Shown here: piece by piece, positions 38,550-39,367 of the stretch
How positions within the stretch are numbered: position 1 is the stretch's first letter
Layout: every line of letters begins with the position of its first letter
Assembly: GCF_050433385.1 (NCBI RefSeq)
Contig: NZ_JBNPXI010000003.1
Coordinates: forward strand, 159,939 to 223,938
DNA from: Brassicibacter mesophilus
GTDB taxonomy: Bacteria > Bacillota > Clostridia > Tissierellales > Proteiniboraceae
DNA: 64,000 nucleotides
Reading direction: 5' to 3'
Translations under genes and position numbers: made by a program
Notes under the pieces: model-generated
The model's database searches: none
What the model was told of the DNA's origin: nothing
What the model saw: the letters and a program-made list of their open reading frames with translations, nothing else

Positions 38550-38642
38550 ATGATTACTATGTTAGGTATTACCAATTTAAACAAAATTGAATATACAGCA
38601 AAAAATAACGGCCTGCGAATAGGTGTAAAGGTTAATCTATAA
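38550..38642 (+). CDS. small ORF A, 30 aa (MITMLGITNLNKIEYTAKNNGLRIGVKVNL), divergent member of tandem peptide family
   Basis: AAGGAGG 10 nt upstream of ATG; shares IEYTAK block with ORFs B-E. Confidence 0.4.
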   Translation: MITMLGITNLNKIEYTAKNNGLRIGVKVNL

Positions 38643-38675
38643 TTGTTTTAATTTTTATTATAATTATGATTTTAC

Positions 38676-38839
38676 AGTCGTAGGTACATAGTCTGCGATT
38701 TTTTGATTTATATTTTAATGCACTTTTTGTGTCTTTTGGAATAATATAGTCGTGGGCTTAATGCTTACGACTTTTTTATATGTTTTCTTGTATACAATAA
38801 AGTAATAAAAAGTCGTAGAGTAGCTATCTGCGGCTTTTT
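38676..38839 (+). repeat. three tandem hairpin+U-tract repeat units (AGTCGTRG-N9-13-CTGCGR/ACGAC-TTTTT) spaced 72 and 63 nt
   Basis: R1 38676-38706, R2 38748-38777, R3 38811-38839; each forms 6-7 bp stem (with G.U) + T5-6. Confidence 0.5.
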
Positions 38840-38897
38840 ATTATGCCTTTGATTCAAGAAAATGTAACTAATGTAAAAAAATAAAGGAGGTGATATA

Positions 38898-38990
38898 ATG
38901 ACTGATTTATTGATGAAATTTCTATTTTTTTCTAATTCAAAGAGAGACTTTGGTTTTGAAGAGTACAGCAAACTAGAATTAAGAAGATAG
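38898..38990 (+). CDS. small ORF B, 30 aa (MTDLLMKFLFFSNSKRDFGFEEYSKLELRR)
   Basis: AAAGGAGGTGA 7 nt upstream of ATG; conserved KRD.G..EY.KLE.R block. Confidence 0.6.
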   Translation: MTDLLMKFLFFSNSKRDFGFEEYSKLELRR

Positions 38991-39019
38991 GTAACATTAT
39001 ACTTTAGGAGGTGATAAAT

Positions 39020-39115
39020 ATGTTGTATTTAGTTGATCAGTTGGTAAAACAATCATCAAACAAAAAAGATCATGGATATGAATTATTTGCAAAGTTAGAA
39101 TTAAGATTATTCTAA
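39020..39115 (+). CDS. small ORF C, 31 aa (MLYLVDQLVKQSSNKKDHGYELFAKLELRLF)
   Basis: TAGGAGGTGA 7 nt upstream of ATG; conserved KKD.GY...AKLELR block. Confidence 0.6.
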   Translation: MLYLVDQLVKQSSNKKDHGYELFAKLELRLF

Positions 39116-39145
39116 GGAGTTTGTACTACAAGGTAGGTGATAGAT

Positions 39146-39238
39146 ATGCTAGGGTTATTAGAACTAATCGTTTCAGGATTTGGACTTAAAAAAGACATTG
39201 GTTTAGACGAATACTTGAAGCTAGAATTTAGAAAGTAA
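39146..39238 (+). CDS. small ORF D, 30 aa (MLGLLELIVSGFGLKKDIGLDEYLKLEFRK)
   Basis: GGTAGGTGA 5 nt upstream of ATG; conserved KKD.GL.EY.KLE.R block. Confidence 0.55.
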   Translation: MLGLLELIVSGFGLKKDIGLDEYLKLEFRK

Positions 39239-39271
39239 TAAAATTAATTAAATAATAAAGGAGAAATGATT

Positions 39272-39367
39272 ATGTTATATAACTTAATTTTTACAAAGGG
39301 ATTTGAAATGAAACAAGATAGAGGATTATTTGAATACCATAAACTTGAATGTAGAAACAAAACTTAG
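39272..39367 (+). CDS. small ORF E, 31 aa (MLYNLIFTKGFEMKQDRGLFEYHKLECRNKT)
   Basis: AAAGGAG 7 nt upstream of ATG; conserved KQD.GL.EY.KLE.R block. Confidence 0.55.
   Translation: MLYNLIFTKGFEMKQDRGLFEYHKLECRNKT

Follow-up and report, generated by a model that had tools for sequence, protein, structure and literature searches.

Within a 64,000-nucleotide stretch of the Brassicibacter mesophilus genome (contig NZ_JBNPXI010000003.1; hereafter the window, to which all coordinates refer unless a locus is named), we found four consecutive short open reading frames (ORFs), B, C, D and E, that encode a family of paralogous peptides under purifying selection. These ORFs lie in about 1.1 kb lacking long ORFs, flanked on one side by the gene for an amino-acid symporter of the SDF family (37095-38378) and on the other by that for an M29 aminopeptidase (39470-40579), a gap which also contains a further short ORF, A. 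We are highly confident that the array represents a real coding family with a leader/terminator architecture ahead of it.

The coding capacity of B-E was evaluated against L015, a locus of a related organism with 92% nucleotide identity (comparison loci carry L numbers throughout); public contigs of the same strain are identical in sequence and hold no information on selection. The two sets of ORFs differ by 24 synonymous and 13 non-synonymous changes, giving a pS of 0.35, a pN of 0.044 and a dN/dS of 0.09 by the Nei-Gojobori method, a pattern with a binomial probability of 7 × 10−10 under neutrality. All gaps between the window and L015 fall in the spacers and none inside an ORF, with identities of 61-83% for the inter-ORF spacers and 87-91% for the ORFs. 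The low dN/dS, together with the absence of ORF indels, indicated that B-E encode proteins under purifying selection, and two more orthologue pairs, from the metagenome-assembled genomes (MAGs) MES16 and MES13, yielded dN/dS values of 0.24-0.29. Amino-acid differences between orthologues amounted to 14.4% in the N-terminal part versus 6.7% in the C-terminal block (Fisher p = 0.03), showing that selection on the family is strongest over the C-terminal 16 residues.

Other tests on the window gave the same four ORFs. The codon motif AAR NNN GAY NNN GGN N7 GAR TWY NNN AAR YTN GAR NNN MG occurs 3 times in the 64 kb and its relaxed form 4 times, and neither form matched in 100 dinucleotide-preserving shuffles. 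When a hidden Markov model (HMM) of 19 family members was run against all stop-to-stop segments of the window, it retrieved B-E only, at 47-51 bits, the next best segment having an E value of 1.3. K, D, G, K-L-E and R are invariant in the alignment of B-E, and the synonymous codons used for invariant residues differ among the four paralogues. A GGAGG-like ribosome-binding site precedes each ORF by 6-9 nt; this spacing and the L015 orthologue favored 39272 over 39266 as the start of E. The initial annotation had described the ORFs as translated paralogues that share a conserved C-terminal block, vary more at the N-terminus and each have a Shine-Dalgarno sequence, and for B-E this description was borne out, the codon-level comparison that it proposed being the one reported above. 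It had named indels, frameshifts or conservation at the nucleotide level only as signs against a peptide, and we found ORFs free of indels and conservation at the amino-acid level.

The compiled family shows the same organization. Compiled from 33 members, the consensus reads K-[KR]-D-x-G-[LYF]-E-E-Y-x-K-L-E-[LFY]-[RK]-[RK]; 0-4 residues separate it from the end, and ahead of it stand 12-16 variable residues that show a weak i, i+1, i+4, i+5 hydrophobic pattern. About 35 relatives were found, limited to a narrow clade of Bacillota: Proteiniborus, Sporosalibacterium, the MES13 and MES16 MAGs and Clostridiaceae bacterium M8S5. An exact-pattern scan of 185,579 species-representative genomes gave true members in 3 only, namely, M8S5 (L010), MES16 (L008, L011 and L012) and MES13 (L013 and L014); the other four matches were rejected, as they lay inside large unrelated proteins, and motif matches in L005-L007, L009 and L024-L028, likewise within large proteins, were discarded as chance. 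A pattern scan of metagenomes added two more contigs, and that of viral contigs gave no match. Among 1.84 billion representative proteins, HMMER retrieved only a handful of relatives of 29-31 residues, whose contigs (L015-L021, L029 and L030) also bear arrays. Divergent arrays missed by the DNA pattern were recovered by tracking neighbor genes (L033, L034 and L035): that of Sporosalibacterium faouarense (L033) has five members with KHE instead of KLE, and that of Proteiniborus sp. DW1 (L034) has one. Overall, the number of members per array ranges from 1 to more than 9.

Two of these loci have features of their own. In L008 (MES16, VEND01000102.1, positions 370-1161), a 223-bp unit is repeated about four times in near-identical form, each unit encoding a basic member of the family, MLGILDKIIASTSIKKDLGLEEYKKLELRK (net +3), together with a divergent acidic partner, MLVIVDNLTEEFESSKDLNGKKIEELEFKR (net -3). 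In the sister genome MES13 (L014), there are only two copies of the basic peptide and one of the acidic peptide, MLVIVDNLTEEFESSKDLTGKKIEELEFKK. As read from these sequences, the amplification in L008 suggests a recent event and perhaps a two-peptide pairing. In L030 (268-513), the 81-residue database protein P0009 is not encoded by its own contig, where the DNA consists of two family ORFs split by TAG, and the protein looks like a gene-calling artefact or the product of stop-codon read-through.

Peptides B-E had no meaningful match in Pfam, NCBIfam, PHROGs, PADLOC or a PDB profile search, and the literature search for the motif strings yielded nothing relevant. A concatenated peptide query against a protein-homology index was also without a match, although this index seems unsuited to proteins of 30 residues. 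The B-E family and its leader are thus new, in that neither the curated models nor the literature searched contained a match.

Family peptides are 28-36 residues long, start directly after a ribosome-binding site without a signal sequence and carry a net charge of -2 to +4 over the whole peptide; no signal peptide, lipobox, double-glycine site or membrane-spanning hydrophobic stretch was detected in them. The hydrophobic N-terminal part of 11-16 residues is broken by charged residues, the N-termini of the Sporosalibacterium members are hydrophilic and Lys-rich, and there is a single Trp (in L022) among 34 compiled members. The whole-peptide hydrophobic moment (at 100 degrees) is 0.05-0.33 compared with 0.40-0.60 for PSM-alpha 1, PSM-alpha 3 and delta-toxin, and that of the N-terminal part is 0.11-0.45. 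Amphipathic leaderless peptides, one of two options raised in the initial annotation, fit poorly with these moments and charges. AlphaFold2 modeled peptide D, using an alignment of 8 sequences, as one helix over residues 2-29 with a mean predicted local distance difference test (pLDDT) score of 71.6. In the C-terminal block, conservation and hydrophobicity alternate every two residues (power of 5.75 at 180 degrees versus 0.76 at 100 degrees), a periodicity that would be expected of an extended strand. Conservation is highest at D, G, E, Y, K, E and R; the charged or polar nature of these residues, like the two-residue alternation, fits a specific recognition surface better than a generic membrane-active helix.

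Known classes of small peptides were considered as well. A type I toxin was rejected, as there is no membrane-spanning stretch of ~18 or more residues; a general scan gave no convincing promoter/terminator pair on the minus strand, antisense RNA not having been specifically searched for. Double-glycine leader peptides and AgrD-like or SHP/Phr-like propeptides were rejected too, with no GG site, C39 transporter, AgrB, RRNPP or Rgg regulator nearby.

Table 1. Features of the peptide array and its control region in the window
Feature	Description	Coordinates	Strand	Basis
Promoter	-35 TTGCAG (38467-38472), 17-nt spacer, extended -10 TGaTATAAT (38487-38495)	38467-38495	+	Read from sequence
Leader stem	AGGCCGU (38537-38543, ribosome-binding-site region) pairs with ACGGCCU (38608-38614)	38535-38615	+	Pattern, RNAalifold
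ORF A	Putative leader ORF, 30 codons	38550-38642	+	0.7 bits against family HMM
Hairpin H1	Intrinsic terminator-like, AGUCGUAGG / UCUGCGAUU and U-run	38676-38706	+	Terminator scan, covariation
Hairpin H2	Intrinsic terminator-like	38748-38778	+	Terminator scan, covariation
Hairpin H3	Intrinsic terminator-like	38811-38840	+	Terminator scan, covariation
Peptide B	30 aa, MTDLLMKFLFFSNSKRDFGFEEYSKLELRR	38898-38990	+	Gene call on public contigs; 7 synonymous, 1 non-synonymous versus L015
Peptide C	31 aa, MLYLVDQLVKQSSNKKDHGYELFAKLELRLF	39020-39115	+	L015 comparison, family HMM
Peptide D	30 aa, MLGLLELIVSGFGLKKDIGLDEYLKLEFRK	39146-39238	+	8 synonymous, 0 non-synonymous versus L015
Peptide E	31 aa, MLYNLIFTKGFEMKQDRGLFEYHKLECRNKT	39272-39367	+	L015 comparison, family HMM
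Hairpin after array	Over E stop codon; no clear + strand U-run	39352-39378	+	Inverted-repeat scan
Hairpin after array	No clear + strand U-run	39400-39434	+	Inverted-repeat scan

Ahead of the array lies a control region whose parts recur together (Table 1). The leader module consists of a promoter, a GGAGGYCGT/ORF segment, a CGGCCTG stem and 3-4 hairpins; it was found in 7 lineages (the window, L015, L020, L014, L033, L034 and L035) and is partly present in L030. The promoter arrangement TTGCA-N17-TGnTAtAAT is kept in the same six comparison loci, and the simple promoter scan misses the copy in the window because its -35 box fits just 3/6 consensus positions. A search for GGAGGYCGT-N40-70-CGGCCTG gave a single match in the window and none in shuffles, and this pattern is present at the equivalent place in L014, L015, L016, L020 and L021. 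RNAalifold retained the 7-bp leader stem in 5/5 folded leaders, with changes only from C-G to U-G and from U-A to U-G, and the stem encloses the start and most of ORF A.

ORF A had been counted in the initial annotation as a fifth paralogue keeping the EY block, an assignment that was not confirmed: the family HMM gives this ORF 0.7 bits (E ~140), and the EY likeness is due to chance. An ATG-started ORF of 24-30 codons after the GGAGG is open in all 7 lineages, including L014, where the CGGCCTG segment falls in another frame and yet the ORF remains open. Conservation of ORF A is mostly at the nucleotide level (GGAGGYCGT ... CGGCCTG), with a pN/pS of ~0.2 against L015 and ~1 against L035. We read ORF A as a leader ORF whose translation would matter more than its sequence.

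Between ORF A and B, the terminator scan and the comparison of loci pointed to a cascade of hairpins. The scan found 4 terminator-like sites versus 0.2 expected, and the hairpins take the form AGUCGYAGG-loop-CCUGCGRCU plus a U-run, with three or four per lineage. Among 20 hairpin copies from 8 loci, with arms picked by hand, 97.8% of the cells pair and 6/9 pairs show compensatory changes, the compensatory double changes numbering 17 cells versus 2.9 in shuffles; the presence of G-U pairs indicates that the structure belongs to the plus-strand RNA. The leader and terminators stand before the array wherever it occupies the ancestral position, directly 3' of a class IV aminotransferase gene, and secondary arrays, e.g., those in L011/L013, have an ordinary promoter and lack the leader. 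In the window, a simple scan detected no sigma-70-like promoter between H3 and B. Since no promoter was found there and the leader and terminators lie ahead of the array, B-E are probably expressed by read-through of the terminator cascade, a mode of control that suggests a tightly off state and conditional induction.

No Rfam family reached its gathering score in the whole 64-kb window, where no tRNA-specific scan was run, and an RsaF match over H2-H3 (30.9 bits versus a gathering score of 60) was judged to be chance. RNAalifold output contained only the ribosome-binding-site stem and the terminator. Transcription attenuators with leader peptides are known in Firmicutes, e.g., those of bmrB-bmrCD, the msrD leader and vmlR. 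Like them, the leader described here contains a short ORF equipped with a ribosome-binding site of its own, with intrinsic terminator(s) between this ORF and the structural genes. It differs from them in that three to four near-identical terminators stand in series, the ribosome-binding site is paired with a segment inside the same ORF, the cargo is a micro-protein array, and no conserved antiterminator, regulatory codon run, arrest motif or Rfam family was recognized.

At the other end of the array, clear terminators were found in L020 and L029, and L034 has a hairpin only, read by eye. The two hairpins after E in the window are possibly a weak terminator or an RNA end. The second of them is a 15-bp inverted repeat just 5' of the M29 gene, which the scan calls as a terminator on the minus strand only; all genes near this repeat are on the plus strand, and the repeat, which may be a weak terminator, an RNA stabiliser or a processing site, is partly kept in L015, with G-U pairs. 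Further short ORFs with ribosome-binding sites follow the arrays in L020 (3926-4024, MSDRLVEVYKNPDMNIISNKEQLLVIESASKT), L034 (~6805-6890) and the window (39370-39453), and they bear no relation to the B-E family.

We then compared the genes flanking the arrays. Judged by its M29 and GNAT neighbors, the window organism belongs with Tissierellia-like Bacillota close to Caloranaerobacter, Sporosalibacterium and Proteiniborus. In the window, the array is followed by genes for the M29 aminopeptidase, an MFS efflux protein, a 1032-residue GNAT fusion, an Amidohydro_2 protein, a two-domain GNAT and TldD/PmbA. In the window, L015, L020 and L033, it is M29 that comes first after the array; L034 and L035 have a 1030-aa GNAT in this position and L008 a DJ-1 family gene, the sequence of L014 stopping before the downstream gene; arrays also lie directly 5' of M29 in L011/L013. 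Secondary arrays stand in unrelated surroundings, and the neighbors of other arrays are a PRiA4-like gene and a CPBP protease in L010, a MacB/HlyD transporter in L012, PepF in L029 and, by our own reading, a Lon-like protease in L022. The seven syntenic loci and the four secondary arrays have no transporter, immunity gene or modifying enzyme in common. Likewise, no YcaO, radical SAM, LanM, ATP-grasp or PqqD-like domain was present in the Pfam/NCBIfam results for neighbors in the window, L008 and L010-L012 or in the Pfam lists for L031-L035.

Coupling of the array to either of its most prominent neighbors was rejected. Full-length homologues of the 1032-aa GNAT number more than 1000, some of them in Brevibacillus, Paenibacillus and Bacillus, and this protein is far more widespread than the peptide motif, which was encountered in only a handful of genomes; this is a comparison of breadth, the Bacillales genomes themselves not having been scanned for the peptides. 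As for M29, an array is missing both from Caloranaerobacter azorensis, whose M29 is the closest named homologue (77% identity), and from L032, and the arrays of L034 and L035 occur without M29. Judging from these arrangements, the array with its leader, and in several loci with its own terminator, behaves as a self-contained module, and the shared neighborhood would be best explained by vertical inheritance plus rearrangements.

Several features of this neighborhood were recorded in passing. A block comprising DUF4349, the class IV aminotransferase, the array, the large GNAT, Amidohydro_2, GNAT, TldD and PmbA extends across several genera (window 34886-50726 versus L033-L035), with a convergent PepF gene in L034 and L035 and with the SDF symporter, M29 and MFS genes in some lineages only. 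The 1032-residue protein (41895-44993, plus strand) has an N-terminal GNAT domain at residues ~25-140, and its other ~880 residues have no Pfam, NCBIfam or PDB match; its more than 1000 homologues (40-67% identity) come from Clostridia, Halanaerobiales and Bacillales (Brevibacillus, Paenibacillus and Fictibacillus), and it represents an enzyme family that is large, widespread and apparently uncharacterised. L011 (855-3807) and L013 (2282-4615) carry tandem M29 paralogues, 78-79% identical, with a SAM-methyltransferase gene between them, and this pair stands 3' of a secondary peptide array and 5' of an MFS gene related to that of the window.

What the peptides do was approached by elimination, and our tentative best guess is that B-E are cytoplasmic, unmodified and act by docking. 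The leader and its ORF would decide terminator read-through, as in a translation-coupled attenuator, and the array would be expressed only when RNA polymerase passes the terminator cascade, whereupon the peptides would be made in bulk. They would then work within the cell as unmodified micro-proteins; their C-terminal block, invariant and mostly charged, would dock onto a conserved, unlinked cellular partner, the variable N-terminal 12-16 residues would tune each paralogue, and the copy number (1 to more than 9 per array) would set the dose.

A number of observations weigh against this proposal. The functional assignment was reached by elimination and names no partner, and the control by read-through was deduced from sequence only. 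No conserved antiterminator pairing was found: in pairing by hand, CCUGCGA of the leader matches the 5' arm of H1 in the window, but the equivalent segments of L020 and L033 are unable to pair with hairpin 1. A 'relay' antiterminator, in which the leader segment pairs with H1 and each 3' arm then pairs with the next 5' arm, was rejected as a conserved mechanism because this first pairing fails in L020 and L033. The secondary structure is in conflict, the AlphaFold2 helix (pLDDT of 72) being at odds with the strand-like periodicity of conservation. In addition, there are the tandem amplification in L008 (four copies of the 223-bp unit) and the rapid change in copy number, and such amplification is more typical of secreted or antagonistic peptides and RiPP (ribosomally synthesized and post-translationally modified peptide) precursors than of regulators. 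Finally, an MFS efflux gene follows the array and M29 in the window and in L011/L013, and other arrays have an ABC transporter with HlyD nearby in L012 and a CPBP/Abi-type protease in L010.

The main rival explanation, which we consider unlikely though worth keeping in sight, is that the products are secreted, unmodified leaderless antagonistic or surfactant peptides, the N-terminal helix of which acts on membranes while the C-terminal tail binds a target receptor. Tandem genes of 28-36 codons with their own ribosome-binding sites and without signal sequences are consistent with this explanation, as are the N-terminal i, i+1, i+4, i+5 hydrophobic pattern, the flux in copy number, the duplicated basic/acidic peptide pair of L008 and the transporter and protease genes just listed (MFS efflux in the window and L011/L013, MacB/HlyD in L012 and the CPBP Abi-like protease in L010). 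Against it stand the charge of -2 to +4, the moment of 0.05-0.33, the single Trp in 34 members and the hydrophilic N-termini in Sporosalibacterium; furthermore, an exporter or immunity gene is not conserved over the seven syntenic loci, and none adjoins the array in L033, L034 and L035.

The C-terminal receptor-binding motif of the LsbB family is KxxxGxxPWE, and the K-x-x-x-G spacing before an aromatic residue in our family resembles it, but there is no Pro-Trp-Glu in 33 members. The overall layout is shared with LsbB and EntK1, peptides of 30-37 aa in which an amphiphilic helix at the N-terminus is joined to a C-terminal tail of similar sequence that attaches to the receptor RseP (PMC5413573). 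The family is like LsbB, enterocin K1 and enterocin EJ97 in that these are leaderless, 30-44 residues long and composed of a variable N-terminal helix and a more conserved C-terminal tail; it differs from them in charge (-2 to +4 compared with +5), in having no detectable sequence similarity and in that neither an ABC exporter nor an immunity gene is conserved in linkage with it. The psm-alpha 1-4/delta-toxin genes and the aureocin A70 genes aurABCD resemble the array as consecutive genes of ~20-31 codons with their own ribosome-binding sites, no signal peptide and a predicted helix. The hydrophobic moment is lower here (0.05-0.33) than in PSM-alpha and delta-toxin, however, there is no Pmt-like exporter, and a three-terminator leader stands before the array.

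A broader reading, rather improbable in our estimate, is that the leader is a new kind of attenuator gating a micro-protein operon by translation state, ligand or protein, with the peptides being a new class of effectors that either would be modified by unlinked enzymes under direction of the follower or would dock on a core cellular machine and retune it under stress.

We regard as quite improbable that the peptides are RiPP precursors in which the core is N-terminal and a follower (recognition) sequence is C-terminal, processed by the M29 aminopeptidase, the amidohydrolase, the GNATs and TldD/PmbA and exported by the MFS protein. The genes that follow the array in the window would supply these activities, part of the set recurs by arrays in L033, L034, L035 and L008/L011, multiple precursor copies are typical of RiPP loci, and the period-two conservation would suit strand pairing onto a recognition domain. 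Bottromycin BotA is a precursor with a C-terminal follower, and the likeness to it lies in the variable N-terminus, the conserved C-terminus and the aminopeptidase, amidohydrolase and MFS genes nearby in the window. Unlike the bottromycin case, however, no YcaO, radical SAM or other of the modifying domains sought above is found among the neighbors, the neighbors are not conserved with the peptides (the arrays of L010, L012, L022 and L029 are without all these genes), and no modifiable residue is common to the N-terminal 'cores'. The GNAT, with its more than 1000 homologues reaching into Bacillales, and the closest named M29, that of C. azorensis, which lacks an array, argue against this reading too, the former as a matter of breadth only. 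The follower RiPP, the other option raised in the initial annotation, is therefore poorly supported, since no class-defining enzyme lies nearby and the downstream genes differ between loci.

Less probable still, to the point that we give it very little weight, is that B-E are regulatory upstream ORFs or ribosome-arrest peptides for the M29 or GNAT gene, acting through the C-terminus in the exit tunnel. A conserved C-terminus with a variable N-terminus is indeed the pattern of arrest peptides such as TnaC, SecM and SpeFL, and the arrays lie directly 5' of M29 in the window, L015, L020, L033 and L011/L013; nevertheless, there are up to nine or more copies per array, the arrays of L020 and L029 have their own terminators, the downstream gene is not conserved, some arrays are far from any M29, and the distance from motif to stop codon varies over 0-4 residues. 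That the array consists of RNA or DNA repeat elements in which the ORFs are incidental, as the tandem repeats and the structured RNA leader nearby might suggest, is scarcely credible in view of the dN/dS of 0.09 with synonymous changes throughout the conserved block, the absence of indels in the ORFs, the retention of a ribosome-binding site and start codon by each copy and the lack of an Rfam match in the array.

Tandem leaderless small-peptide operons and leader-ORF attenuators are known kinds of systems, and it is their combination here, i.e., a cascade of 3-4 terminators, a ribosome-binding site paired with the 3' part of its own ORF and a micro-protein cargo, that is not described. Proteins of fewer than 50 residues are routinely overlooked by annotation, and few of them have a known role. 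The present family is an unusually clean case, combining protein-level selection, a sharp 16-residue motif and a narrow phylogenetic range, and its conserved and unusual control region (a leader ORF, a sequestered ribosome-binding site and a triple terminator) implies that production of the peptides is restricted to particular conditions. If the peptides are secreted or modified, they would represent a new bacteriocin or RiPP-like class. To find the condition that induces the peptides and the partner to which their C-terminal block binds would give a function to a new micro-protein family, and such work could also define a new type of attenuator in anaerobic Firmicutes.

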